Virus record (IMG/VR): IMGVR_UViG_3300023184_003735
Span: 32,001 to 96,000 of that record
Origin: a virus
Reading direction: 5' to 3' (one strand)
Length of the DNA: 64,000 nucleotides
The notes under the pieces were generated by a model that was not told the origin of the DNA, did no database searches, and saw only the letters and a program-made list of their open reading frames with translations. This document shows, piece by piece, positions 52,586 to 64,000 of the stretch. The translations under genes and the position numbers were made by a program. The first letter of the stretch is position 1. Each line of letters starts with the position of its first letter.

Positions 52586-53124
52586 TACAAGGTCTCGCCG
52601 CCTACTGTACGGTTACATGCACACAATTCTCCAGTCTGCAATGCGTCTAATACACGCAATGTTTCTTCTGGGCTACGACCCACGTTCAAGTTGTTAACTG
52701 TGACGTGTTGGATTTCATTGTTGGGGTCAATGATGAATGTTGCACGTAGTGCGGCACCTGCTGGAGCATAGAACACACCCAGTTGTTCAATTAATGATAA
52801 CTCACCACGCTGTGTGTCAGCAAACTGATGGTGGGTGATCTTCTTAAGATCTTCATGTGCTGTTTGCCATGCCACTTTGCAAAACTCATTGTCTGTTGAA
52901 CCGGTTAACAAAATAGCATCACGGTCGGCAAAGTCCGTGGCCAACCGGTCATAGGCCACAATCTCAGTTGGGCACACAAATGTAAAATCTTTTGGATAGT
53001 ACACAATCACTTTCCACTTGCCTTCGAATGATTCGTCAGTAATGGTATAAAATGCGTCTTGGGGTTGTCCAGGTTTCACGCCAGTGACAGCAAATGGTGT
53101 TAACTTATCGCCTACAGTTTTCAT
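52585..53124 (-). CDS. ahpC: Peroxiredoxin
   Basis: YPKDFTFVCPTE, RATFIIDP, GRSPEETLR. Confidence 0.93.
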   Translation of the reverse strand: MKTVGDKLTPFAVTGVKPGQPQDAFYTITDESFEGKWKVIVYYPKDFTFVCPTEIVAYDRLATDFADRDAILLTGSTDNEFCKVAWQTAHEDLKKITHHQFADTQRGELSLIEQLGVFYAPAGAALRATFIIDPNNEIQHVTVNNLNVGRSPEETLRVLDALQTGELCACNRTVGGETL

Positions 53125-53246
53125 ATTTTCTCCTTGATTAATGAAACTCAGTGTTTGTACTGAGTCATTATTATATAGCATAGGAGATGTCTAAGTCAAG
53201 GCATTTTGCCATTGATTTTTTCTATGTTGACAATTGATTTTGTAAA

Positions 53247-53555
53247 TTATGTAGGATCAACTTGAGAACTGGTTATGTTACCAGGATAAGTTAAAGAGGT
53301 TGGCACGGTTTGCATTGTTTCAAGCCAGGCATTGGCAATTTCCAATGTGTCCCAGGAACGCACTACAGTTCTTGTACCAGTATCATAATCTATGGTTTCA
53401 CTAACAAGATTGTCTGTATCTGTTGGTATTCCTTGCGATTGAAAAAATTCAAGTAATGGTGGTTTTGATTTCAATGTAAATTCTCTCACCGTTTCGGCCA
53501 TGACTTCTTGAGAATCTTGATAGGTAAATCTAAAAACTACGGTAGTTGTTGGCAT
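53247..53555 (-). CDS. Hypothetical protein
   Basis: AAGGAGG RBS; TATAAATA at 53587-53580. Confidence 0.65.
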   Translation of the reverse strand: MPTTTVVFRFTYQDSQEVMAETVREFTLKSKPPLLEFFQSQGIPTDTDNLVSETIDYDTGTRTVVRSWDTLEIANAWLETMQTVPTSLTYPGNITSSQVDPT

Positions 53556-53588
53556 ATTAGCCTCCTTAAGTTGATCATGTATTTATAC

Positions 53589-53665
53589 TGGCCGGCCCTG
53601 AGGGACTCGAACCCCCAACCTCCAGTTTCGAAGACTGGCACTCTAATCCATTGAGTTAAGGACCG
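53589..53665 (-). tRNA. tRNA-Arg(TCG)
   Basis: Cloverleaf; CCAGT-CTTCGAA-ACTGG anticodon arm; encoded CCA. Confidence 0.92.
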
Positions 53666-53671
53666 TTTTGT

Positions 53672-53745
53672 TGGTGCTCCTAACTGGTAACGATCCAGTG
53701 TTTCTACATTACCAATGCCGTGTAATGCTATTATACTATGAGAGC
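53672..53745 (-). tRNA. tRNA-Thr(GGT)
   Basis: Anticodon loop TTGGTAA; atypical T-loop ATCGTTA; some stem mismatches. Confidence 0.8.
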
Positions 53746-53748
53746 AAT

Positions 53749-53822
53749 TGGAGCGGGATAGGAGAATCGAACTCCTACGATAACCTTGGCAAGGTCACAG
53801 GCAACCATTACATCAATCCCGC
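53749..53822 (-). tRNA. tRNA-Gly(GCC)
   Basis: GCGGGAT acceptor strand, loop TTGCCAA, TCCA end. Confidence 0.92.
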
Positions 53823-53828
53823 CTAAAC

Positions 53829-54299
53829 TTACGCTGCCAAACTCTTGAATCTATCTGCGGCGTAACTGGCTGCAAATGCTTGGGGTTTGACAAAAGGTAT
53901 CACATTACATGTACCTTTGATGTATCCAATGGCTTGTGAAATTACACAACTTGATCCGTGCATTTCGTTGGGATTGATGTCCAGGTGAACCTCAACTTCT
54001 CGCCCTTCTAGTACCTCTGCCAGTTTAAGGTACAATTCGCTCACTTTGTATACTTCGGTCATCAAACGTAAACTAGGGCGACTGGCCTTCTGGTCCCAGT
54101 CGCGTTCACGTTGTACTTCGCCAAACAGTTTGCAACCGTTGTTGCCATTGATATGGACCACAATAGCCAGCACATAATCGGCATGCCAGGCACCTTCTAC
54201 TTTGACACGTTCACTATCGCAACCAAGATAGATTTTTGTTTCAGGTGTTTGGGCCCGGATAAATTCTGCCACTTGGTCAATGTCTAGTTTTTTCATCAT
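53829..54299 (-). CDS. RNase H-like YkuK/DUF458-family protein
   Basis: IYLGCDS, EVHLDIN, ASYAAD motifs. Confidence 0.75.
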   Translation of the reverse strand: MMKKLDIDQVAEFIRAQTPETKIYLGCDSERVKVEGAWHADYVLAIVVHINGNNGCKLFGEVQRERDWDQKASRPSLRLMTEVYKVSELYLKLAEVLEGREVEVHLDINPNEMHGSSCVISQAIGYIKGTCNVIPFVKPQAFAASYAADRFKSLAA

Positions 54300-54339
54300 T
54301 TGCCTTTTATTTAACTCTATAAACATTACGGTTTTATTA

Positions 54340-54416
54340 TGGTGCCCCAAGAGAGACTCGAACTCTCAAAATTTGGCTTTTAAGACCAACACGTATACCA
54401 ATTCCGTCATCGGGGC
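54340..54416 (-). tRNA. tRNA-Leu(TAA), short variable loop
   Basis: Loop CTTAAAA; 77 nt. Confidence 0.88.
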
Positions 54417-54424
54417 AAAAATAC

Positions 54425-54498
54425 TGGCACGGGAACTAGGGCTCGAACCTAGAATGACAGAGTCAAAGTCTGTAGTGTTACCATTACACCATTCCCGA
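54425..54498 (-). tRNA. tRNA-Gln(TTG)
   Basis: ACAGA-CTTTGAC-TCTGT; GCCA end. Confidence 0.92.
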
Positions 54499-54508
54499 AC
54501 AAAAATCT

Positions 54509-54583
54509 TGGTGGATGAGAGTAGAGTCGAACTACCACCGGACTCCGTATGAAGGAGGGGCACTACCATTATGCTACTCATCC
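54509..54583 (-). tRNA. tRNA-CAT (elongator Met, or lysidine-modified Ile2)
   Basis: Loop TTCATAC; G1-C72 paired. Confidence 0.85.
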
Positions 54584-54584
54584 T

Positions 54585-54666
54585 TGGTACCCCTGCCCCG
54601 ACTCGAACGGGGATATCATACTCCTCTGTTTGAGAGAGGCGACTTTACCAATTTGTCCACAGGGGC
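54585..54666 (-). tRNA. tRNA-Leu(CAA)
   Basis: CCTCT-CTCAAAC-AGAGG. Confidence 0.9.
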
Positions 54667-54671
54667 CGACT

Positions 54672-54748
54672 TGGGGTGCATGATGGGATTCGAACCCACG
54701 AGTATCGGAATCACAATCCGAGGTCTTGACCGCTTGACGACACGCACC
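54672..54748 (-). tRNA. tRNA-His(GTG)
   Basis: Loop TTGTGAT; G-1:C73. Confidence 0.93.
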
Positions 54749-54828
54749 ATACAAAAACACACTGCCTCTCTTTATGGTCGGAGCCCATGGTAAAGACGTC
54801 GCTCCTCGGCAGTGTGTTTTTGTATGGT
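54746..54828 (-). ncRNA. Long-stem inter-tRNA RNA element A
   Basis: 21-bp perfect inverted repeat, 54746-54766 and 54808-54828. Confidence 0.6.
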
Positions 54829-54852
54829 AGGGGCACAGAGAATCGAACTCTA
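54825..54852 (-). pseudogene. Orphan tRNA 3' fragment (T-arm, acceptor strand, CCA)
   Basis: TAGAG-TTCGATT-CTCTG-TGCCCCT-ACCA, starting at the HNH stop codon; no 5' half. Confidence 0.8.
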
Positions 54853-55431
54853 CTTCTCTAACAATCTTTTTGCTCTGGAATAGTTGTTACCCTTTGCCGC
54901 AATTCCTGCTTTGAGCAAACCTTGTCTTATACTACTGGTTTCTTTAAGACATTGTAGTAAAAATTCATCGGTTACTACATTTACGCCGTTTTTAGAAGGT
55001 TTGTTTCGTCCCCTCCATGTATCAGTGATACTATGGCAGTTTGGGCACAGTCCTTCTAAATTTTCTCTAGTATTGTTTTGATTGTTGCCATCTTTGTGCT
55101 CAAGTTCAAGTGGAATTTTGAACCCCTGCCACTCACTTACGCCACATTTATTACAGCAATGATTTTGTTCTTCAAATACTCTGCGTCGTCTGTTTTCCAT
55201 ACCTAATTCAGAAAATGGAGTAGCATTATATTTGTCTAGCCACGCCTGTTTGATATTTGCTCTCCATTGATCTACATCAGAGATAAGTCCACGTGTACTA
55301 GGCTTTCCCTTTAATGCAATACTTTTTTTACGTTTACTTTCATCGGAAAACTCCCGACTATTAGCACATGTTCTAGAACAAAATGTTCCAGATTTGCTAT
55401 GTTCTGTTTTACACTTAGGACATTGTTTCAT
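54850..55431 (-). mobile_element. Free-standing HNH homing endonuclease inside the tRNA array
   Basis: CPKC..FCSRTC, CNKC, LELEHKDGN...N...LCPNCH; AT-rich. Confidence 0.85.
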
Positions 55432-55491
55432 ATCGAACCCTATTAAATTATAGAAGTATTTAGTAGAGTTCCATATAAAACAACTCATAAA

Positions 55492-55565
55492 TGGTGAGAC
55501 CGGAAGGTACTGCCCCTTCTTAGTCGGATTAAAAGTCCGATACTTTACTTTTAAGTTACGATCCC
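55492..55565 (-). tRNA. tRNA-Lys(TTT), divergent
   Basis: TCGGA-CTTTTAA-TCCGA; T-loop GGCAGTA; D-loop lacks GG. Confidence 0.75.
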
Positions 55566-55617
55566 ACTAATCTTATCACTCTTGTCACTAGTCATGACAC
55601 TTCTCCTTAGAAAAAAT

Positions 55618-55692
55618 TGGTGCCGCCGGGTGGGAACGATCCACCGACCCTTGCCTTATCAAGACAATGCTCTACCACTGAGCTACGGAGGC
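55618..55692 (-). tRNA. tRNA-Ile(GAT)
   Basis: Loop TTGATAA; T-loop ATCGTTC. Confidence 0.88.
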
Positions 55693-55705
55693 TATAAATA
55701 TGCGT

Positions 55706-55936
55706 ATGATTACCGCTGACAATGCCATGATATTCTTGTACCAGGCGGCACAAGGCACTTATCAACAACGATTTTATTCTACTACCACACGCAGGTTCAC
55801 TCTTGATACCATGCTGATCAATCCACGGAAAGAGTTTAAAATTGATACTACGTTTGTGGTGCCTCCTCCAGGTTCCGACCCTGGTTCCCCGGATTTTCAG
55901 TCCGGTGCTATGACCACATCAGCTAAAGAGGCATAA
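55706..55936 (+). CDS. Small ORF antisense to the tRNA array
   Basis: TATAAATA (55693-55700)-N5-ATG; the 3' end overlaps tRNA-Phe on the opposite strand. Confidence 0.45.
   Translation: MITADNAMIFLYQAAQGTYQQRFYSTTTRRFTLDTMLINPRKEFKIDTTFVVPPPGSDPGSPDFQSGAMTTSAKEA
55857..55932 (-). tRNA. tRNA-Phe(GAA)
   Basis: CCGGA-CTGAAAA-TCCGG; T-loop GTCGGAA. Confidence 0.88.
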
Positions 55937-55937
55937 T

Positions 55938-56013
55938 TGGTACATCCTGACGGGCTCGAACCGCCGACAGCCTCGGTGTAAGCGAGGAACTCTACCAACT
56001 GAGTTAAGGATGC
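55938..56013 (-). tRNA. tRNA-Val(TAC)
   Basis: CCTCG-CTTACAC-CGAGG. Confidence 0.93.
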
Positions 56014-56018
56014 ATGTT

Positions 56019-56111
56019 TGGCGGAAGACGGAGGAGTCGAACCCCATCCCATTTTGTGAGAACCTGGTTTTCAAGGCCAGTCGCGGCACCAACGCCACTG
56101 CATCATCTTCC
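56019..56111 (-). tRNA. tRNA-Ser(TGA) with 8/4 acceptor/T-stem fold
   Basis: GGAAGATG/CGTCTTCC 8-bp acceptor stem, 4-bp T-stem, long variable arm, loop CTTGAAA, G73. Confidence 0.85.
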
Positions 56112-56117
56112 TGAATT

Positions 56118-56195
56118 TGGAGCAACGGGCTGGATTCGAACCAGCGGCTTTTGGGATTTGCAATCCCATGCATTGGGCCACTCTGCCACCGTTGC
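56118..56195 (-). tRNA. tRNA-Cys(GCA)
   Basis: TGGGA-TTGCAAA-TCCCA; U73. Confidence 0.92.
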
Positions 56196-56199
56196 ATAT

Positions 56200-56277
56200 T
56201 GGTCGGAATGGTGGGATTCGAACTCACGACCCTCTGCTCCCAAAGCAGATGCGCTAACCAGACTGCGCTACACTCCG
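56200..56277 (-). tRNA. tRNA-Pro(TGG)
   Basis: TCTGC-TTTGGGA-GCAGA. Confidence 0.94.
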
Positions 56278-56513
56278 AATTTTTTCTTGATCCACATACC
56301 AAACAGTGTGCCACAGTAGGCACCTGCTAGAGCAGGTATCAAGGCCCAATGGTCTTCTGTGTAGTTGATTACTGCTACACTGGCTGTGAAGGTCACTGCC
56401 ATGCTCCACCACGCGGCCATTAAGGGACGATTGTCTTGAATTGATTTCACAAAGTAAACGTAAATCAAGTCAGTTGCAAATACTGCAAAAAAAGTTATGA
56501 TATAAGCCCACAT
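56268..56513 (-). CDS. Small membrane protein
   Basis: Three hydrophobic helices. Confidence 0.6.
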   Translation of the reverse strand: MWAYIITFFAVFATDLIYVYFVKSIQDNRPLMAAWWSMAVTFTASVAVINYTEDHWALIPALAGAYCGTLFGMWIKKKFGV

Positions 56514-56514
56514 A

Positions 56515-56745
56515 TTATTTCTTCTTGTCTAGTGTGGGTTCTTGCGGGTTGTCTAATTCATGCGGTTCAGCGAATCTTGCGTTGCCACCGATGCCTTTCC
56601 AACTGTCTTCTGTGAAGATTCTGATGGGTCGCCAGTATCGAGCAATGATATTGTTGATCACCACAAGTGCAATTACCACGGCTATAAAGCCCAGTGCTGT
56701 CAAAATGCTACCGGCTAAAAATACTGCCGCTTGATCCATGTCCAT
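56515..56745 (-). CDS. Small membrane protein
   Basis: AAGGA RBS; N-terminal transmembrane helix. Confidence 0.6.
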   Translation of the reverse strand: MDMDQAAVFLAGSILTALGFIAVVIALVVINNIIARYWRPIRIFTEDSWKGIGGNARFAEPHELDNPQEPTLDKKK

Positions 56746-56761
56746 ATGTTTTTCCTTTGAG

Positions 56762-56835
56762 TGGAGCGGGATAGCGGAATCGAACCGCTGACACTAACTT
56801 GGAAGGATAGGGTAATACCATTTTACGAATCCCGC
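56762..56835 (-). tRNA. tRNA-Gly(TCC)
   Basis: GCGGGAT acceptor strand; loop CTTCCAA. Confidence 0.9.
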
Positions 56836-56858
56836 TCTTATACATTACAATGTATGCT

Positions 56859-56934
56859 TGGTGCCCCCACCATGATTCGAACACGGCACCTACTGATTAC
56901 AAATCAGTTGCTCTACCGAATGAGCTATAGGGGC
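56859..56934 (-). tRNA. tRNA-Thr(TGT)
   Basis: ACTGA-TTTGTAA-TCAGT. Confidence 0.93.
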
Positions 56935-56940
56935 AAATTT

Positions 56941-57016
56941 TGGCTCTCTAGCGTGGGCACGATCCACGGACCTAACGGTTAACAGCCGTTTGCTCTACCA
57001 ACTGAGCTACTAGAGA
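56941..57016 (-). tRNA. tRNA-Asn(GTT)
   Basis: AACGG-CTGTTAA-CCGTT; T-loop ATCGTGC. Confidence 0.9.
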
Positions 57017-57210
57017 ATAATTTCAACTGACTTGGCGTCTTGATCACGTATGGCCCACTCAGTGCTACCCACACGTATGTGTAGACAACAGGCCCCGCGT
57101 CGTAACACAGTCACAGTTCGTGTGGCAACAATGCCCATTTGCTGTAGTCGTTCGTTAGTGACGCCGGCTATCACAGCCTGGTCATGCGTTTTTAAGTCGT
57201 TCAATGTCAT
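57010..57210 (-). CDS. feoA: FeoA-like SH3-domain protein
   Basis: MTLNDLK...ERLQQMGI...VTVLRR...IRVGSTEWAIR..DAKSVEI pattern. Confidence 0.7.
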   Translation of the reverse strand: MTLNDLKTHDQAVIAGVTNERLQQMGIVATRTVTVLRRGACCLHIRVGSTEWAIRDQDAKSVEIIL

Positions 57211-57216
57211 ATGCTT

Positions 57217-57306
57217 TGGCGGAGCGTTAGGGAGTCGAACCCTATCAACCACTTTCATGATTGTACGGATTAGCAATCCGCTGCCTTACCATCCGGCCCA
57301 CGCTCC
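57217..57306 (-). tRNA. tRNA-Ser(GCT)
   Basis: Loop TTGCTAA; long variable arm. Confidence 0.93.
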
Positions 57307-57314
57307 TCTATAGT

Positions 57315-57343
57315 ATTATATAGTCAACGTGTGACCATGTCAA
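57315..57343 (-). promoter_or_regulatory. Internal sigma70 promoter in the tRNA array
   Basis: Perfect TTGACA-N17-TATAAT. Confidence 0.75.
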
Positions 57344-57351
57344 CAACAATT

Positions 57352-57436
57352 TGGTGGAGATGACTTGAGTCGAACAAGTAGTGCCAGGGGCGGCTGATTT
57401 ACAGTCAGCTGGGGTTACCAATTTTCCTACATCTCC
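57352..57436 (-). tRNA. tRNA-Tyr(GTA)
   Basis: GCTGA-CTGTAAA-TCAGC; variable arm. Confidence 0.92.
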
Positions 57437-57440
57437 AATT

Positions 57441-57515
57441 TGGTGGACCGTCCCGGGTTCGAACCGGGGACTGAGGCTTGCAAAGCCACTGTGTTCCCAA
57501 CTATACCAACAGCCC
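57441..57515 (-). tRNA. tRNA-Ala(TGC)
   Basis: G3:U70 pair; loop TTTGCAA. Confidence 0.92.
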
Positions 57516-57521
57516 AAATTT

Positions 57522-57599
57522 TTGGCGACCCCGAAAGGATTTGAACCTCTGACATTTGGTTTTGGAGACCAACGTTCTGCCGGACTGAACTACGGAGCC
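57522..57599 (-). tRNA. tRNA-Trp(CCA)
   Basis: TTGGT-CTCCAAA-ACCAA. Confidence 0.92.
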
Positions 57600-57620
57600 A
57601 TAACGCACTCTTGCGAATGC

Positions 57621-57703
57621 GTGTATCGAAGCACACCAAGGTCACAAACCCCGACCGTTCATGGCCGCACGAACCTTTTCGGTACTGGTATGCTTCGATA
57701 CAC
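57621..57703 (-). ncRNA. Long-stem RNA element B
   Basis: 18-bp stem (57686-57703 with 57621-57638); its one mismatch is a U-G wobble on the minus strand. Confidence 0.6.
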
Positions 57704-57797
57704 TCGGATTTTTTTATGTACAAGAACATAAGCCATCCCCGAGGCCGCCCATTTGCAGTTTTGAGTGTTGCAGGCTCGCGTTGCCTTGCACTAAATG

Positions 57798-57865
57798 AAA
57801 AACCCTGGAGTTTTAATTCCAGGGTCCTTGGTGTGAATACGGTTGTATACTATGTTAGGACCCTG
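57798..57865 (-). promoter_or_regulatory. Attenuator 1: terminator/antiterminator
   Basis: Terminator ACCCTGGA-N8-TCCAGGGT-TTTT; CAGGGTCCT at the end of the leader ORF pairs (9 bp) with AGGACCCTG, the terminator's 5' arm. Confidence 0.75.
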
Positions 57866-57968
57866 TGTCTCCTGGAATGCTTGCTGTCAAGCGACCATAG
57901 ACATGTGACCAGGCGGATGTCTGATTAAACATTGTCTTGGGTAGCGATAAACAGAGTTGCGTTTTCAT
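57855..57968 (-). CDS. Putative leader peptide 1 (37 aa)
   Basis: MKTQLCLSLPKTMFNQTSAWSHVYGRLTASIPGDTGS*; ATG 7 nt after the TATAAT of TTGACA-N17-TATAAT (58004-57976). Confidence 0.65.
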   Translation of the reverse strand: MKTQLCLSLPKTMFNQTSAWSHVYGRLTASIPGDTGS

Positions 57969-58048
57969 AGTATCAATTATAGTTTATTTATCATCTCGTG
58001 TCAACCACGACATGCTCTTTCTGTGTTATTTATACAACACAGTTGAAT

Positions 58049-58122
58049 TGGATGCGGGTGACAGATTCGAACTGCCGATGCACCTGGCTTATGAGACCGG
58101 TGTGGTGGCCACCCTACCCGCG
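58049..58122 (-). tRNA. Initiator-like tRNA-Met(CAT), atypical
   Basis: C1:A72 mismatch, loop CTCATAA, reduced D-arm; own promoter TTGACA-N17-TATAAT at 58167-58139. Confidence 0.75.
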
Positions 58123-58163
58123 ATAATATTATTTATAAATTATAAAACAAATAAAATTATTTG

Positions 58164-59018
58164 TCAACCAGGATACAAATTTTCTTCACTGTCAAATTTG
58201 TAGTCGTCTGGCAATACCACCTTGGTTGAGTGGTCAATCAACTCGGCTAACTGGGCGGTGGGTACTCCGGTGACTCTAATTTGTCTTCTCCTAGAGGTGC
58301 AAATTGGAACACCATGCAAAAAATAATCACTATGCAAGTATACCGGATCGTTTGTGGTAAACACTTTTTTGTTGTCATCTCCATCCAGTGCCCACCATAG
58401 CGGAACACCGCCATCACTGATGTTTAATGCAACGATCACATGACCTTGCTGATATAATCCATTTTCGGCACCAGCATTTTTAGCGAAAGGCAAACCAGCA
58501 TCAGCAGAATATCTTGCATCACGATGTATGTTACTGAAACTTCCTGGTGCCAAACTCACACAGTGTATGTTCACAATTCGTTTAAATGGCAATTGCTTCA
58601 AAATAAATTCTACAATTTTTAAATGTTTAAATTCGGGTTTTATTTTATAAAGTCTGTTCAAATGATGATTGCGCATGCAAGACCCACCTTCTCCAGCATT
58701 ACGTTTTACAAAATCGCTATCTGATTCAATAGTGATAAGTTCTAGCAGTTGATTCATTTCAAAGCCAGAAATCCCACGAATTTCTTCAGTGTATTGTCCA
58801 GAATTACCAATTTCTATCGACACGTTCATTTTATCATACAAGATTGGATCTATCATTCCCCATGCCCGATTGAGATTACGAGTACCATCTAAAGTTTGCC
58901 GGCGTGTACATATAGAGTGCGAAGTTGGTAAAATATATTGGTCATACTCTTCGACAAAGAGTTTGTGGTCAAAGTCGAGATTGAGTTTTGCGTAAGCAAG
59001 ATTTGCAAATTGGTGCAT
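58164..59018 (-). CDS. Oxygenase-like hypothetical protein
   Basis: NIHRD (HxD) ... FLHGV ... RRQIRV. Confidence 0.5.
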   Translation of the reverse strand: MHQFANLAYAKLNLDFDHKLFVEEYDQYILPTSHSICTRRQTLDGTRNLNRAWGMIDPILYDKMNVSIEIGNSGQYTEEIRGISGFEMNQLLELITIESDSDFVKRNAGEGGSCMRNHHLNRLYKIKPEFKHLKIVEFILKQLPFKRIVNIHCVSLAPGSFSNIHRDARYSADAGLPFAKNAGAENGLYQQGHVIVALNISDGGVPLWWALDGDDNKKVFTTNDPVYLHSDYFLHGVPICTSRRRQIRVTGVPTAQLAELIDHSTKVVLPDDYKFDSEENLYPG

Positions 59019-59095
59019 GTTTTTAGTAGTAGATATTTTGAAATCCAACAAGTGGAGTTTCTATTGAAAGTACTATATTTAGTTCAATTGATAAT

Positions 59096-60547
59096 TCATT
59101 GATCATGTTTTTCTAATTCGGGCACAAAATCTTTAAGTTTTACTCCACGACTATTATCAAGTACACGATTAAATTCAAAAAATTTTTTTAAACTTTCAGT
59201 ATCGGGTAGTGAATTTTTTACTTGAATTTCAATTCTATCAATTGTGGTTTTAAAATACTGATCTTGCTGATATCTCTTTAGTTGTTTGATCAACTGTAAA
59301 TTGTCAAGAATTGTTTGTGGCTCGGGATGATTCCAAGGCGATTGATCAGGTTCTACGCCAGCAACAAGATTCATGGAACAATGAACTTTTAAATATTTGT
59401 CATCTAAGAAATTATAAAGATCAAACAGGTGTGCAATATTATAGATACTGATCACAGTATTGAAGTTTGCAACACGACCCATATCATAAAGTGTAGCAAC
59501 ATTGCGACACCAGTTGTCCCATTTGATAGGCCATCTAATGTAGCGATTTAATTGATCAAATCCGTCTACACTCACACTAAATTCTAGATTAGGAAATTTG
59601 TTACAGTAGTCTAACATCTGAGTTGATAAGACTGATGCATTGGTGCTGACTTCAAATGCAATATCATTGCGTTGCTTTTCAATGCATTGGTCAAGGAATT
59701 GAAAAAATTCCTTGTTTATAGTGGGCTCTCCTCCGGCTATTTGTAGACATCGCACATGGTCAATGTCAACGTGATCAAAAATACCTTGTTTTTTGTGATT
59801 AGTATAGTTTGATAGACCAATTGCTCTATATTCTCTAGCAATGAGATGCGAATTGCCAGGAACACACATTCGACACATTGCATTACAACGATTGTCTAAT
59901 ACCGCATATACATACAATGGTGAAGGTACAGTTGTTACATCTTGTTGCGTTTTAATATTAAACTTGCTACTCCAAGTTTGAGTAAAATTTTGTCTTTGAC
60001 TGGTCATTCCTAGATCTTCTTTTTGCCAACAATGACTGCATTCATCAACACGTTTTCCCTGCAACATACTCTGTTTTACGGACTGGCTCCATGATGCATC
60101 AAATTTATCAGATGGTCTTGATTGCATGTGACAGCAATGACTTTTTTGCTTTTGTGTTTGGTATAGCCCAACGAATGGTACAATGCAAAAGGCTGGATTA
60201 GTATGTAATTCTTTTAGAATCCATGGTACCAAGTCGGGATTTTGATATTCCACTACAAAAGATTTTTGTAAGTCAAATATCATGCTGATTGTTATTGCAA
60301 AATCTTCAGCATTATTGTAAGATTCTTGATCTTGATCTAACAATATAATTTTGCATGATTTACCATACAACAGGGTCTGCAACTCAGCCGGTGTTATATC
60401 GTATATACTGGTATGATAGACACCAGAAGATAAGTTTGTATTTCGATCCAATACTAATTTATATTCAAGATCGTGTTGTTGTGCAATTTTTTGTGTAATT
60501 TTGTGTGCTATTTTATTGCCTGTGCCCACACATACAATTAGATTCAT
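59096..60547 (-). CDS. Radical SAM enzyme
   Basis: CIVPF..HCC..CSHC, CNAMCRMC, AGGEP; AT-rich. Confidence 0.88.
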   Translation of the reverse strand: MNLIVCVGTGNKIAHKITQKIAQQHDLEYKLVLDRNTNLSSGVYHTSIYDITPAELQTLLYGKSCKIILLDQDQESYNNAEDFAITISMIFDLQKSFVVEYQNPDLVPWILKELHTNPAFCIVPFVGLYQTQKQKSHCCHMQSRPSDKFDASWSQSVKQSMLQGKRVDECSHCWQKEDLGMTSQRQNFTQTWSSKFNIKTQQDVTTVPSPLYVYAVLDNRCNAMCRMCVPGNSHLIAREYRAIGLSNYTNHKKQGIFDHVDIDHVRCLQIAGGEPTINKEFFQFLDQCIEKQRNDIAFEVSTNASVLSTQMLDYCNKFPNLEFSVSVDGFDQLNRYIRWPIKWDNWCRNVATLYDMGRVANFNTVISIYNIAHLFDLYNFLDDKYLKVHCSMNLVAGVEPDQSPWNHPEPQTILDNLQLIKQLKRYQQDQYFKTTIDRIEIQVKNSLPDTESLKKFFEFNRVLDNSRGVKLKDFVPELEKHDQ

Positions 60548-60559
60548 TATAAATTTTGC

Positions 60560-60950
60560 TCGGTTAAATGCTCTGACATCCCTCGGCGGTAATTATAGAG
60601 CATTGAGTGATAGTCTTTCCACTACACACCGCAACTTGTACTCCTTCCACCCGCTTCCCGACAGGGACCGTTCTCGTATTGCTAACGCCGGTTAGGTTAG
60701 ACCGCATCTTTCGATGTGAGACTTATATTCCAAATCTCAGAACCACCCGTGCTTGTCACAGCACTTCTCATCGTCTGGGTCAGACTATCCAGTGACGCTG
60801 GAACGTTAGGGAAGGGCTGGCCCCATAACGGGATACCACTTAGCCTTACTTATCTGTCGCGTTGGAGTAAGGCACCCTAATTAGGAGAGAAGCCACGGTT
60901 GCAGGACCTAGTGCCTTTTGCAAGGGAAGTATCCAGGCGGTGTGGCTTCA
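60560..60950 (-). ncRNA. Large structured ncRNA region (unassigned)
   Basis: About 390 nt, GC-richer than its flanks, no credible ORF; helices GAAGCCAC/GTGGCTTC, GCCTTACT/AGTAAGGC, GTGC/GCAC, TGAGA/TCTCA, AATGCTCT/AGAGCATT. Confidence 0.6.
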
Positions 60951-60956
60951 AAAACT

Positions 60957-61031
60957 TGGCGGTCCGAACGGGAATCGAACCCGTCTCCTCGCAGTGACAG
61001 TGCGAAATACTAACCGATATACTATCGAACC
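60957..61031 (-). tRNA. tRNA-Asp(GTC)
   Basis: TCGCA-CTGTCAC-TGCGA; G73. Confidence 0.93.
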
Positions 61032-61191
61032 AAATGTTATAGTCAAGCACCGAGAATGCCAATTTATGCGTCCTCCGCTAAGAGTGCAAAAGCCGAATGC
61101 AGTTATATTAGGATCAGTCGCCGGCCGCTGTGACCCGAATAGTGTTGGCGTCCCATACACGATACCTTATCGATGCTTGACTATAACATTT
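61032..61191 (-). ncRNA. Long-stem RNA element C
   Basis: 22-bp terminal stem (61170-61191 with 61032-61053), one U-G pair. Confidence 0.65.
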
Positions 61192-61315
61192 ACCATATAG
61201 AAGCACTCTCGCCAGCAGGCCTAGGAGGGGACTTGCACCACTGAAACTTTCGCATCTGCAGATACTAGGCTTCTTCTCCTGCTTTGACTTATGCCAAGAA
61301 TACTTCTATATGGTA
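61191..61315 (-). ncRNA. Long-stem RNA element D
   Basis: 19-bp terminal stem (61297-61315 with 61191-61209), two U-G pairs. Confidence 0.65.
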
Positions 61316-61386
61316 CTCCGTGGGGGAATCGAACCCCTCCTTACCCGCGTGAAAGGCGAGTGTCCTAACCGATAGACGAACGGAGC
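61311..61386 (-). tRNA. tRNA-Glu(TTC)
   Basis: Loop CTTTCAC; cloverleaf with CCA. Confidence 0.92.
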
Positions 61387-61394
61387 ATGTAGTT

Positions 61395-61602
61395 TTACAT
61401 TGAGGAATCATTGTGGATCTTGTTCTGCTTGGCTTGCGAGGCCAAGTCACCACGATCATTACATCCAGACGATCCGCCGCTTTTCCGGATCACTTCGCAA
61501 GGAAGGAGAGCCTATTTCATGACTGATAGCAGATGGGCACCCGCCGATGCCGGATTCATCTCTACCAATGCCACTAACGGGTCTGGTAACCTCTTTGTAT
61601 AT
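61395..61602 (-). ncRNA. Structured ncRNA, about 200 nt (unassigned)
   Basis: Terminal TACAAAGAGG/CCTCAATGTA; internal CCAGAC/GTCTGG, GATCCG/CGGATC, CTTGGC/GCCAAG. Confidence 0.55.
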
Positions 61603-61656
61603 TTTAAAGATCTGTTGCAACCAGTATCGATCTACTTTGTTGCTTTGTTAAGTTCT

Positions 61657-61685
61657 ATTGTAGCAGAGTTCCATTTATTGGTCTA
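61657..61685 (-). promoter_or_regulatory. Sigma70-like promoter just downstream of terminator 2
   Basis: TAGACC-N17-TACAAT; resembles the 49355 promoter (GACCAATAAAT...TGCTA). Confidence 0.6.
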
Positions 61686-61695
61686 GCACTAAATG

Positions 61696-61759
61696 AAAAA
61701 CCCTCCAAATTGGAGGGCCTTTAGTGATGTAGTACAAAATACTTACATCCAAAGACCCT
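61696..61759 (-). promoter_or_regulatory. Attenuator 2: terminator/antiterminator
   Basis: Terminator CCCTCCA-ATT-TGGAGGG-TTTTT; AGGGTCTTTGG in the leader pairs with CTAAAGGCCCT, plus GATGTA/TACATC. Confidence 0.75.
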
Positions 61760-61820
61760 GCAGGCAATCGCGCTCGTGTTCTGAACGGAAAGTGTTAGCG
61801 ATTGCGTTTATTGTCATCAT
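61743..61820 (-). CDS. Putative leader peptide 2 (25 aa)
   Basis: MMTINAIANTFRSEHERDCLQGLWM*; ATG 6 nt after the TACAAT of TTGACA-N17-TACAAT (61855-61827). Confidence 0.65.
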   Translation of the reverse strand: MMTINAIANTFRSEHERDCLQGLWM

Positions 61821-61851
61821 AGTGTTATTGTATACGATTATTTATACTTTG

Positions 61852-63012
61852 TCAACGAAAATAATTTTGGATTTTGCCAGATCTGCTGATGTCGTTTGTG
61901 ACACAATGAATGCCGCAATCCCAGAAATATTTGTGACGGAACGGCACCACATGCACTTCGATGCCATGTCGTGCGCAGGCCTTCTCTACCTGGTCGTTGT
62001 GTGTGCTGACCACAATGTTCTTGGGATCCACTATCAGGATGTTGACGTCGAACACAGTTTCACTAACCTGTCCCACCCACTCGTCAAAGTAGTGATCCAC
62101 CATGTGAACCAAGTTGTTGTCCTGTTCAAACCCGGGCATGAACCAACGTCCCTTGTTGCGTTTCATGGAGTACTCAAACTCGCGCATGTGTGCGTAGTTG
62201 CTGGGTGGCAGGTACACCACTTCCCAGTCTGGGAAGGTGTCAGCATAGGTGGGAACATCATTGAGGCTGATGATCAGACCCGGCGTCACTGGGCAATACA
62301 CCGCATCACCGTGCCCACCTGAATTGACCACTCTATTTTGAGTTGTAGGAAACAACTGATTCACTTGATCTAGTATGCCTTGTTTGTCATCATGATAGGT
62401 TTGTGTGGCAAAGTACAAGTCCTCACCTATGCGACTCACAAAACAGCCGTTGATGAAATCAAGATCAGTTGACACAATCTCATTGCCCTGCGCCTTGATG
62501 TCCGCAAACACATGAGAATAAAACCCCAACTTGGCGTCTAGATGCGCTTGATCAGTCTGATTGAATCTAGCAAACTTGGCCTGTACCTCTTCGGCAAACT
62601 CAGGATAGTCTGCATAAAAATCCGCAGGACGTATGTGGTCGTTCCACCAAGGCTGTTTGTTCTGTCGGTAAAACACTGACCATGCATGACTGGCATTGGG
62701 AATTCGGGGAACCCAAAATCTGTCCTGAATCATCAAAAAGTAATCTCTTGGTGCTGTGGGCGGTTGCACCCACTTGTTATCTATGTACAGTTGGGACAAG
62801 TCCGTGGGAAACTCCGGACGCATCACACGCACACCAAATCGATCTGTCAACAGTCGTATGAGTCGTTGATAGTCTTCTTCGGTCTCTTGTGCAAGAGTTT
62901 CAAAGCGTTCTCGGGTGGCAGAGTTCTTGATCCAACTGTAGAACTCTGGGGGATAAGTGCGACCCACTAATGAGACTTGTAGTGGATCCCAGTGTTGATA
63001 TACTGAATACAT
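61852..63012 (-). CDS. Amidinotransferase, second paralog
   Basis: HWDPLQVSLVG, APRD, GHGD, DVNIL, CGIHCVTND. Confidence 0.8.
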   Translation of the reverse strand: MYSVYQHWDPLQVSLVGRTYPPEFYSWIKNSATRERFETLAQETEEDYQRLIRLLTDRFGVRVMRPEFPTDLSQLYIDNKWVQPPTAPRDYFLMIQDRFWVPRIPNASHAWSVFYRQNKQPWWNDHIRPADFYADYPEFAEEVQAKFARFNQTDQAHLDAKLGFYSHVFADIKAQGNEIVSTDLDFINGCFVSRIGEDLYFATQTYHDDKQGILDQVNQLFPTTQNRVVNSGGHGDAVYCPVTPGLIISLNDVPTYADTFPDWEVVYLPPSNYAHMREFEYSMKRNKGRWFMPGFEQDNNLVHMVDHYFDEWVGQVSETVFDVNILIVDPKNIVVSTHNDQVEKACARHGIEVHVVPFRHKYFWDCGIHCVTNDISRSGKIQNYFR

Positions 63013-63057
63013 AGATAGACTTTTTGATAGTCTACTATATATTGATATCGCTTTGGG

Positions 63058-63222
63058 TCAAGGCTTTTTGACTCGATTGCAAGCAGGATCTTTACAAGCA
63101 GTGATTCGTTTGCGATCACAGTCGGGGCAGTCTCGGATTCGGACCCAGTTGGCGGGCATGAATCTTATGACCTCATTTTTTCCGGGTTTGTCCTGACTGT
63201 CACATTTGGTAGCATGTATCAT
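63058..63222 (-). CDS. Small Cys-rich hypothetical protein
   Basis: AAGGAG RBS; CPDC...CKDPAC. Confidence 0.45.
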   Translation of the reverse strand: MIHATKCDSQDKPGKNEVIRFMPANWVRIRDCPDCDRKRITACKDPACNRVKKP

Positions 63223-63278
63223 CAATGTCTCCTTGACATACATATACAACGTGTTAGCCCGCAAAAGGGTTGACAAGA

Positions 63279-63300
63279 GAAACCCGCCGAAGCGGGTTCT
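63279..63300 (-). terminator. Hairpin/terminator after the tmRNA coding piece
   Basis: AACCCGC-TTCG-GCGGGTT followed by TCTCTT. Confidence 0.75.
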
Positions 63301-63457
63301 GGTGATTTCTGTTACGAGGTATTTCCTACCCTAGGCCGCTCACGCTGCCAAAGAATAAACGCTATCGTTTGCATTTACTAGTTTTGCTTGATTTACGGTC
63401 ATCGCCTACCGAGCGCCATTACCCCTACTCTTTGCCCTGTCGAAACTATGCAGGCCC
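63300..63457 (-). ncRNA. ssrA: Permuted tmRNA, coding piece (tag ANDSVYSLAA at 63372-63340)
   Basis: 5' GGGCCTG...TTCGAC; tag frame GCA AAC GAT AGC GTT TAT TCT TTG GCA GCG TGA. Confidence 0.92.
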
Positions 63458-63458
63458 A

Positions 63459-63830
63459 TCATAAAGAAACTTGTTTGAGGTATTGCTCACCTTCGCCAGT
63501 AACATACCAATACTCATTGTCATTGACAATGTATCCTAAATCTGCCAAACTATCCATAGCATTGTCAAAGGCTTGGGTGCGTGACTCATCTTCTACATAG
63601 TCTAATCCTGACATGATGGCAGTATAGATTCCTTTTAGTATTAGAATTTTACCTAATCCTTTGCTTTGAAAGGTTGGATCTAACTCTACTAAACTTCTTC
63701 CACTATCTGCATCGTATTGAAACGTTCCTGCATACTGCCCGTCAACATTCATTTCAACACCAATAGTATTACTACCTTTTGTTGTGTTAAAACTTAGTTT
63801 TGAACCGGCAATATCAGTAATACGCATCAA
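63459..63830 (-). CDS. GNAT-like protein in the tmRNA intervening segment
   Basis: AAGGA RBS directly after CCA; VELDPTFQSKGLGKILI resembles acetyl-CoA-binding motif A. Confidence 0.6.
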   Translation of the reverse strand: MMRITDIAGSKLSFNTTKGSNTIGVEMNVDGQYAGTFQYDADSGRSLVELDPTFQSKGLGKILILKGIYTAIMSGLDYVEDESRTQAFDNAMDSLADLGYIVNDNEYWYVTGEGEQYLKQVSL

Positions 63831-63839
63831 ACTTCCTTA

Positions 63840-63903
63840 TGGTGGACCTGGGGGGATTCGCACCCCCGTCCAGAACACTTTTCTTGATAACAGTTTACGC
63901 TGT
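63840..63903 (-). ncRNA. ssrA: Permuted tmRNA, acceptor piece
   Basis: GGAC-GGGGG-TGCGAAT-CCCCC-CAGGTCC-ACCA; pairs with GGGCCTG to give G3:U70; promoter TCGACA-N17-TATAAT upstream; 5' end approximate. Confidence 0.92.
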
Positions 63904-64000
63904 TCAAGTATTTATTATACTATCAAATTGATTTGATGTCGACCTATTTGGTACTCTGATTGCACGTGGCCACAATCTGTTTGTTTTGGGCCCGGAACTC

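Follow-up and report, generated by a model that had tools for sequence, protein, structure and literature searches.

Four long hairpins lie among the tRNA genes of the window

The DNA analyzed here, called the window, is a 64,000-nt stretch that spans bases 32001 to 96000 of a 124,183-base viral contig from IMG/VR (IMGVR_UViG_3300023184_003735, hereafter G000), and coordinates are positions within it unless another record is named. Between 53589 and 61386, ARAGORN predicts 23 tRNAs on its minus strand, and the subject of this work is a set of four long RNA hairpins, cassettes A to D, that all sit among these tRNAs on the same strand. CheckV places the completeness of G000 at 36%, implying a phage of about 350 kb. 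Rfam returned 23 tRNA matches over the window and a circularly permuted (two-piece) transfer-messenger RNA (tmRNA) gene (63331-63902, minus strand; RF04321, 101.6 bits). A tmRNA of this two-piece form would suggest a host among the alpha- or betaproteobacteria or the cyanobacteria. The cassettes and the RNA genes that flank them are as follows, in the order of transcription.

61311..61386, minus strand: tRNA-Glu(UUC), called by ARAGORN and Rfam; its 3' ACCA supplies the opening pairs of cassette D
61191..61315, minus strand: cassette D, a 21-bp closing helix UACCAUAUAGAAGUAUUCUUG/CGAGAGUGCUUCUAUAUGGUA with 3 G-U pairs and an 83-nt interior
61031..61192, minus strand: cassette C, a 23-bp closing helix UAAAUGUUAUAGUCAAGCAUCGA/UCGGUGCUUGACUAUAACAUUUG with 2 G-U pairs and a 116-nt interior
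60957..61031, minus strand: tRNA-Asp(GUC), called by ARAGORN and Rfam; its 5' end adjoins the 3' arm of cassette C
57619..57705, minus strand: cassette B, a 19-bp closing helix GUGUAUCGAAGCAUACCAG/UUGGUGUGCUUCGAUACAC with 2 G-U pairs and a 45-nt interior of two hairpins
57523..57599, minus strand: tRNA-Trp(CCA), called by ARAGORN and Rfam; the first tRNA 3' of cassette B
54826..54855, minus strand: orphan T-arm, acceptor and CCA, the 3' end of a tRNA-Lys(UUU); its ACCA opens cassette A
54745..54829, minus strand: cassette A, a 22-bp closing helix UACCAUACAAAAACACACUGCC/GGCAGUGUGUUUUUGUAUGGUG with 1 G-U pair and a 41-nt interior
54672..54748, minus strand: tRNA-His(GUG); within cassette A, its first Gs are paired to the CC of the CCA upstream

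A preliminary description of this DNA, made from its letters alone, had reported four inverted repeats here, and they prove to be its strongest. An inverted-repeat search over 53000 to 64000 reported 11 pairs, with A to D at ranks 1 to 4. In a stem scan of the full 124,183-base contig (uninterrupted stems of at least 15 bp, G-U allowed, loops of 4 to 250), the same four were the longest stems on the contig at 19 to 23 bp on the minus strand, and the remaining six (two plus, four minus) were only 15 to 16 bp. Just A (21 bp) and C (18 bp) still reach 15 bp when read on the plus strand, so the mismatches of A to D are G-U pairs, eight altogether, on the tRNA strand only. Folding energies were -42.4, -45.5, -58.9, and -48.9 kcal/mol for A, B, C, and D, with z scores of -7.3, -5.5, -5.2, and -4.6, and none of 200 dinucleotide shuffles of each cassette folded as well as the real sequence.

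The position of each helix relative to the tRNAs, which had also been described for A, C, and D, was verified. Cassette A opens on the ACCA of the orphan tRNA-Lys 3' half, and its final GG is the 5' end of tRNA-His; ARAGORN sets that end at 54747, and the G at 54748 could be the G-1 of tRNA-His. Cassette D opens on the ACCA of tRNA-Glu (61311-61314) and adjoins cassette C, which ends at the first base of tRNA-Asp (61031) and, being preceded by D, does not start on a tRNA CCA. Cassette B has no CCA at its start; it precedes every other structured element of its transcription unit, with tRNA-Trp about 20 nt downstream. B, C, and D share the core helix AAG(C/U)AU/GUGCUU and A has AAACAC/GUGUUU, as previously read. 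The four interiors are mutually unrelated, that of A being a small hairpin followed by single-stranded GACCAUAAAGAGAG.

The hairpins belong to a family found beside phage tRNA genes

Long stems with related arms, such as ACCATATTGAAATACGTT/AGCGTATTTCAATATGGT, are present in the tRNA clusters of relatives G001 to G003, L001, and L079. A two-arm pattern (9 + 9 fixed bases) run over IMG/VR hit at least 118 stretches, and the 80 loci examined held 88 matches, 61 of which extend to stems of 16 to 31 bp. The other 27 are 9 to 15 bp, mostly fall in loci without tRNAs, and look like chance. Nearly all of the extended elements (57 of 61) lie in tRNA-bearing loci; in 56 of these 57, G-U pairing is better on the tRNA strand, and an upstream tRNA ends exactly on the stem-opening CCA in 22 of the 45 elements that have one.

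An alignment of 56 members (A2) was used to build a covariance model, R1, with cassette A in the training set and B, C, and D left out. Run unfiltered over the window, R1 scored 65.9 bits on its training member A, 26.0 bits on B (E 1.9e-4 on the minus strand versus 19.2 bits on the plus strand), and 23.6 bits on D (E 8.5e-4 on the minus strand versus 12.6 bits on the plus strand); it found nothing else in the window at E ≤ 0.01. Since a model built without B and D finds both, we assign them to the family by a sequence test that was blind to them.

Over 100 loci (917,347 bases), R1 gave 392 matches at E up to 0.01, both strands counted. The family-wide counts given here rest on the best 150 of these, which represent 135 places and at least 119 unique elements of 61 to 160 nt, with up to four elements per locus. 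Of 115 elements, 113 score higher on the tRNA strand. Exact overlap with the last five bases of the upstream same-strand tRNA, that is, a start on its CCA, occurs in 50 of the 98 elements that have such a tRNA; at the other end, 15 of 105 elements extend into the first four bases of the tRNA that follows, and another 17 come within 10 nt of it. The helix thus typically begins on the CCA of the preceding RNA, and its far end often reaches or takes in the GG that starts the next tRNA. Because it is flush with the tRNA ends, tRNA processing would bound the cassettes, as the preliminary description had proposed.

The family appears to be confined to such sites. The complete genome G002 (352,754 bases) has three significant R1 places, all within the tRNA cluster; the remaining 337 kb or so gave no significant match and one weak one (E 0.13) 2.3 kb outside the cluster. 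A further 51 kb of G000 had no R1 match. Among 50,697 cultured-phage records, a canonical cassette found only a 32-nt chance match (E 3), and the segment from tRNA-Glu through D and C to tRNA-Asp matched cultured phages in its tRNAs only. The strict two-arm pattern hit two short contigs of metagenome-assembled genomes among 185,579 bacterial species genomes, and these are probably phage DNA in the bins. Near-identical arms are carried both by contigs with a homologue of the T4-type RegA and by jumbo genomes of about 350 kb. Rfam 15 had nothing on the cassettes at gathering scores over the window or at E up to 5 over 53000 to 64000, and in four loci with canonical members it gave only a chance-level match to a microRNA family (E 0.76) at E up to 1. 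The Rfam null also argues against known self-cleaving ribozymes. Such cassettes were not described in the literature we searched, which did not extend to the supplementary motif lists of RNA-discovery papers. The family is apparently undescribed and widespread among the tRNA genes of uncultured lake phages.

The closing helix is conserved as RNA on the tRNA strand

In the consensus of alignment A2, a 5' arm (N)ACCAUAUUGAARYACAUU pairs with a 3' arm AGUGURYUUCAAUAUGGU, and the AAGCAU/GUGCUU core seen in the window is the center of this helix, which is 17 to 23 bp long in the cassettes. Across the 56 members and 20 pairs, standard pairs fill 96.2% of the 1120 cells. In the same alignment, 14 of the 20 pairs change on both sides, the outer helix being partly fixed by the search pattern; A-class members, which were retrieved via their interior instead, show covariation in the outer pairs as well, with G-C, A·C, and A-U at one position. 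None of 500 shuffles reached the real alignment on any of five measures, and sliding the partner by one to three columns lowered pairing to 30 to 49% of the cells.

In the larger set of 119 elements, the 20 pairs give 2378 two-sided cells, of which 2032 are Watson-Crick, 237 G-U, 43 A-C, and 66 other. G-U and A-C counts would swap on the opposite strand. The helix is selected as RNA pairing on that strand, and the earlier suggestion of RNA-level selection, based on U-G-only mismatches in A to D, holds family-wide. The conservation in relatives on which the preliminary description had staked its proposal was also found, and the covariance-model scan it had called for recovered the family in IMG/VR.

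Pairing does not account for everything that is conserved. A particular U-G wobble is retained by 107 of 119 members. At each position that varies, the 5' arm is the more variable of the two, and C187 is kept in 114 of 119, including 12 cases opposite an A. Shared descent may contribute to some of these arm-conservation counts, which suggest that the 3' arm sequence has a role beyond pairing. Conserved arms around free loops, with the 3' arm the less variable, are also the pattern of a microRNA precursor, whose product would chiefly be the 3' arm AGUGUGUUUCAAUAUGG, with the loop discarded. The complement of this arm, however, is merely the 5' arm plus the tRNA ACCA, and the outer arm sequence is explicable by the neighboring tRNA ends; we regard the release of an arm as very unlikely.

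Interiors are diverse, and some classes recur

The 119 interiors form 78 sequence clusters, 58 of them singletons, and range up to 116 nt or more, themselves well folded. Some interior classes recur across phages beside different tRNAs. The A class consists of a small hairpin followed by an invariant single-stranded GACCAnAAAGAGAG, and outside the window it occurs in seven further IMG/VR contigs as one subclass and in eight elements as a second. Its hairpin stem shows a compensatory switch from GCCG/CGGC to GCUG/CAGC, and its cassettes come after tRNA-Lys, tRNA-Ser, tRNA-Glu, tRNA-Ile, or another cassette. Some cargoes, such as the A class, are under selection, and many others may be passengers.

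Two origins or roles for the interiors were rejected. Hairpins resembling a T-arm are found in only 4 of 119 interiors, three of them just before the 3' arm, and in none of A to D, which argues against derivation from tRNAs. Guide or antisense payloads had been suggested, but the interiors of A to D have perfect complements of at most 11 to 12 nt in the 124-kb contig, a length matched by 47 to 70 of 100 shuffles, and so show no above-chance complementarity within this roughly 36% of the genome.

A separate observation concerns the interior class of L111, L147, L153, L151, L139, and L155, which carries an 8-nt self-complementary word that stays palindromic despite change (GGCTAGCC, GGCATGCC, GATCGATC). 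It adjoins a hairpin with a conserved UUAUCG-type loop and may be a dimerization site.

The diversity of the interiors would fit an element in which the helix alone matters, acting in cis as a processing site, folding insulator, or exonuclease block, around loops that are neutral. Besides the many singleton clusters, the lack of above-chance complementarity in A to D and the fact that the helix is the only part conserved family-wide point this way. It is harder to reconcile with interior classes kept across phages and tRNAs with compensatory changes and an invariant GACCAnAAAGAGAG, with interiors that are long and well folded, or with neighboring tRNAs that do without such spacers, and we think it unlikely.

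Cassette content varies between tRNA-Glu and tRNA-Asp

One site shows a series of states in related phages. The window reads Glu-D-C-Asp, locus L001 Glu-A'-D'-C, and locus L212 Glu-X-A''-D''-C''-Asp; cassette C is near-identical in L001 and L212, and cassette D is present in both. In L001, A' combines X's 5' arm with the A'' interior, which reads as a deletion between the direct 5' arm copies of X and A'', and D' has unchanged arms with its center replaced. As the deletion traced in L001 would lie between two direct arm copies, we infer that ordinary recombination among the repeated arms explains the shuffling of cassettes. There was no transposase among the commonest neighboring gene families, and no search was aimed at recombinase families.

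Sequencing-run contigs add one more state. In contigs of three runs, tRNA-Glu is followed by 5 letters and then cassette C, with no D (joint 61186 to 61310); the sides of the joint measure 90, 36, and 31 letters, and the 90% likeness marks these contigs as coming from relatives. Cover of the protein-coding bins 58156-60565 and 55023-55263 was nil or nearly so in the RNA-labelled runs X19, X18, and X20, which did cover the bins with tRNAs, cassettes, and noncoding RNA, while the DNA run X2 covered all 30 bins; missing cover in such contigs proves nothing, conserved RNA genes of relatives match at 90% anyway, and no RNA ends are shown. Only the joint is drawn from the run cover, and the contrast in cover supports nothing.

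Presence/absence polymorphism at one site could also be produced by selfish palindromic DNA resembling miniature inverted-repeat transposable elements (MITEs) or repetitive extragenic palindromic (REP) elements, spreading in tRNA clusters where it needs to be harmless and where its RNA fold would be incidental. Near-identical arms in phages as different as the RegA-type contigs and the jumbo genomes, and the same interior class beside different tRNAs, twice in one cluster (L136), agree with such spread. However, neither the excess of G-U over A-C pairs (237 versus 43) nor the bias to the tRNA strand (113 of 115) is expected of a DNA inverted repeat. The fixed CCA register in 50 of 98 elements fits the logic of RNA ends, no transposase stands among the commonest neighbor families, and the one traceable deletion between direct arm copies points to ordinary recombination. 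Of the marks of a MITE, the inverted repeats are present, and no target duplication is discernible, the element starting on the tRNA's own CCA. MITEs, enterobacterial repetitive intergenic consensus (ERIC) and REP elements, and the PeSL elements of T4-type phages are repeated intergenic inverted-repeat units that promote modular shuffling, and some are transcribed and fold as RNA; the cassettes differ in their confinement to tRNA operons, their CCA register, their G-U asymmetry, and their non-homologous interiors. Overall, we judge a selfish origin to be improbable.

Candidate partner proteins

A constant protein-binding or processing handle with a variable payload had been envisaged in the preliminary description. 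Its anatomy stands, with a kept helix around 78 clusters of interiors, but the payloads of A to D showed no above-chance complementarity to the 124-kb contig and no gene for a binder was found. TROVE/Ro (PF05731) is absent in G000 and in G001 to G005, of which G002 is complete; the positive control was found in Deinococcus and Bacteroides. DUF2828 and DUF7788, the first of which may be Ro-like, are absent in G000 to G003 and in G005. In 5 of 58 loci, a 479-aa protein with both domains is encoded close to the cassette-bearing tRNA cluster (e.g., L158:6541-7977, minus strand).

The lack of a Ro gene bears on whether the cassettes are scaffolds of the Y RNA type, in which the helix would be the docking site for one RNA-binding protein of host or phage and the interior would tether or decoy other factors. 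Conservation of the helix sequence, the U-G wobble, and the 3' arm beyond pairing is what such docking would produce. A long terminal stem with a large variable internal part is the shape of Y RNAs and YrlA, the RNAs bound by Ro60, and phage examples exist, some of them tRNA-like (PMC4201824). The T-arm-like hairpins would fit as well, yet they occur in just 4 of the 119 interiors. The genomes searched have neither a TROVE/Ro gene nor a DUF2828/DUF7788 gene, no Rfam family, Y RNA included, matches the cassettes, and the GGUCCGA-like Ro motif, which that source places on the 5' strand of the stem (PMC4201824), is absent from the consensus. We see little likelihood of this kind of scaffold.

A gene for a DUF458 (PF04308) RNase H-like protein (53829-54350, minus strand) lies inside the tRNA cluster of the window; in G002 a homologue borders the tRNA cluster, and 14 of 58 loci have the gene. 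Its closest cultured homologue (60% identity) sits amid the clustered tRNA genes of Stenotrophomonas phage DLP6, in which we found no stem of at least 13 bp of the cassette type. Because DLP6 has the gene in its cluster and no such stems, DUF458 goes with tRNA clusters, not with cassettes; it was rejected as a partner and is better described as a companion that recurs with phage tRNA clusters. A metallophosphoesterase found in 20 of 58 loci is subject to the same caveat.

A proposed processing stalk between tRNAs

For the window, the chances seem to us about even that A, B, D, and the divergent C are co-transcribed spacer cassettes of a tRNA operon, whose helix is a processing and stability stalk and which are gained and lost by recombination of their arms. 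Once transcribed, the helix would clamp the spacer shut, with the CCA of the preceding RNA on one side and the 5' end of the following RNA on the other. A cut in the stalk by a double-strand-specific host enzyme of the RNase III type is a candidate first step; no phage RNase III gene (PF14622) was found in G000 and four relatives, and the host enzyme would therefore be needed. RNase P would then act at the 3' side and 3' trimming would work back to the CCA at the 5' side. The tRNAs would be finished normally, leaving the capped interior as a stem-closed, exonuclease-resistant small RNA. In such a scheme, the stalk would serve as a universal adaptor through which a tRNA operon could carry any small RNA, and at the DNA level cassettes would be gained, lost, and swapped through recombination of the repeated arms and not by a transposase.

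The arm sequences have features that such processing could use. The 5' arm starts with CCA-UAUU, presumably similar to the RNase E sites that follow the 3' ends of tRNAs. Immediately before G+1, the 3' arm closes with ...AAUAU, and A(-2)U(-1) is the favored RNase P leader (PMC10731613).

Several points weigh against this reading. Stable leader helices slow RNase P and impose ordered cuts, according to the same review (PMC10731613), and a stable helix that covers the leader and G+1/G+2 should do the same here; a duplex of two turns would thus probably require a prior cut, by host RNase III, or unwinding. The stalks are also dispensable for tRNA maturation, because most tRNAs of the same cluster are spaced by merely 1 to 10 nt. 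The sequence needs of RNase III are loose, and the conservation of the helix exceeds them. The near-invariant helix, the kept U-G wobble, and the conserved 3' arm hint that a specific binder may exist. Excision and accumulation of the cassette RNA are predicted only, the contigs from RNA libraries showing no ends. With 58 of the 78 interior clusters being singletons, most of the cargo could be junk. Finally, cassette C gave no R1 match at E up to 10; judged from its shared core and layout, C is best called a divergent relative that the family model does not recover.

The processing-stalk reading can be extended into a bolder one, which we put forward tentatively and hold to be possible, although the weaker of the two. 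Here, the clamp helix would be an adaptor for both expression and excision, with which several lineages of lake phages swap, stack (one to four in tandem at the Glu-Asp site), and express dozens of structured small RNAs, unrelated to one another, from their tRNA operons. The near-invariant helix with its kept U-G wobble would be read by one dedicated factor of host or phage, and the cargoes would serve as decoys or aptamers against host functions, e.g., tRNA-targeting defenses. Integron cassettes offer a loose parallel, but the adaptor would operate at the RNA level and for small RNAs.

Comparison with known phage RNAs and processing stalks

The clamp-helix cassettes are an addition to a known class, the non-tRNA RNAs of phage tRNA clusters, with an unusual modular design. 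Within that class, the closest documented comparison is with the stable RNAs of T5, followed by rnaC and rnaD of T4, and none of these is homologous to the cassettes. All share with the cassettes a location in a phage tRNA cluster, with tRNA processing sites as their boundaries. RNAIII, RNAIV, RNAI, and RNA2H of T5 (NC_005859, "stable RNA with unknown functions") are likewise non-tRNA and flush with tRNAs. RNAIII adjoins tRNA-His and has a 12-bp terminal stem with a multi-hairpin interior, and RNAIV has a terminal stem of about 9 bp. In contrast to the cassettes, the T5 RNAs show no sequence relation or common helix, their stems are half as long, and they are single genes without swapped interiors. 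The T4 RNAs cited in the preliminary description, species 1 and 2 (rnaC and rnaD), are also small and stable and lie at the end of the T4 tRNA cluster beside tRNA-Arg. This comparison holds for cluster position but not for structure, as rnaC folds like a tRNA, T-arm included, and its terminal stem is short, the fold of rnaD is not significant (z -0.8), and neither RNA has a helix of about 20 bp.

In bacterial rRNA operons and T7 early transcripts, RNase III acts on stalks, long flanking duplexes with perfect or nearly perfect pairing around an RNA that is freed from a polycistronic transcript. The cassette duplex is similar in being about two helical turns long (19 to 23 bp in the window) and formed by flanking sequences. 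It differs in that the interior is small and variable, the flanks are tRNAs, the duplex is near-invariant, and cleavage is only a candidate.

Neighboring genes and other structures

The tRNA island around the cassettes is itself a variable region, because only 3 of the 80 loci that have relatives of a neighboring 386-aa protein carry tRNAs at that place. The orphan 3' end that opens cassette A belongs, in L206 and L210, to a whole tRNA-Lys(UUU) that is followed by an A-class cassette. An open reading frame (ORF) at 54850-55488 (minus strand), which runs into the orphan 3' end, has therefore taken the place of the 5' part of this tRNA in the contig. It was labelled HNH in an earlier reading and has no Pfam match. 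Upstream of it, a second, odd tRNA-Lys(UUU) at 55495-55565 (minus strand) was seen by Rfam only. Other protein genes interspersed among the tRNA blocks are an 88-aa FeoA-domain ORF (57010-57276, minus strand), a 295-aa protein without a Pfam match (58164-59051, minus strand), and a 483-aa radical-SAM protein for which pattern search gave no IMG/VR relative (59096-60547, minus strand). R1 found no clamp helix in the region of the permuted tmRNA.

A shorter stem, GAAGCCAC/GUGGCUUC, had been noted after tRNA-Asp (60889-60949). It is real, yet weak on its own (z -2.3, with 4 of 200 shuffles folding equally well), and it belongs to a different, larger conserved RNA, not to the cassette family. A noncoding region of about 390 nt (60558-60949, minus strand) directly follows tRNA-Asp and opens with this hairpin. 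It is conserved relative to L212 as long identical blocks, and the window copy carries a 75-nt insertion. Its hairpin tips show compensatory changes (CCUU/AAGG to UCUC/GAGA; GUGCU/AGCAC to GUGUG/CACAC), and no Rfam match was obtained at E up to 5. The region is probably a separate large structured RNA. In addition, 2 kb past the end of the window (97962-98076 of G000), a 16-bp stem TAACGCATGGTCAAGG/TCTTGACCATGTGTTA with an 83-nt loop pairs better on the plus strand and has no match to R1.

Implications for phage tRNA clusters

Phage tRNA clusters are now viewed as modules for counter-defense and for tuning translation, and the non-tRNA RNAs within them, such as T4 species 1 and 2 and the T5 stable RNAs, have gone unexplained for decades. 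The family described here adds a large comparative set, in which at least 119 members share one helix in fixed register with tRNA ends, around interiors of at least 78 kinds. Should the helix be only a processing stalk, it would still reveal the way in which phages set the order of maturation within long tRNA precursors. If it is an excision adaptor, it would show by natural example how arbitrary small RNAs can be released from a tRNA operon, a design rule useful in RNA engineering, and its cargoes would form a catalogue of phage small RNAs for anti-defense screening.

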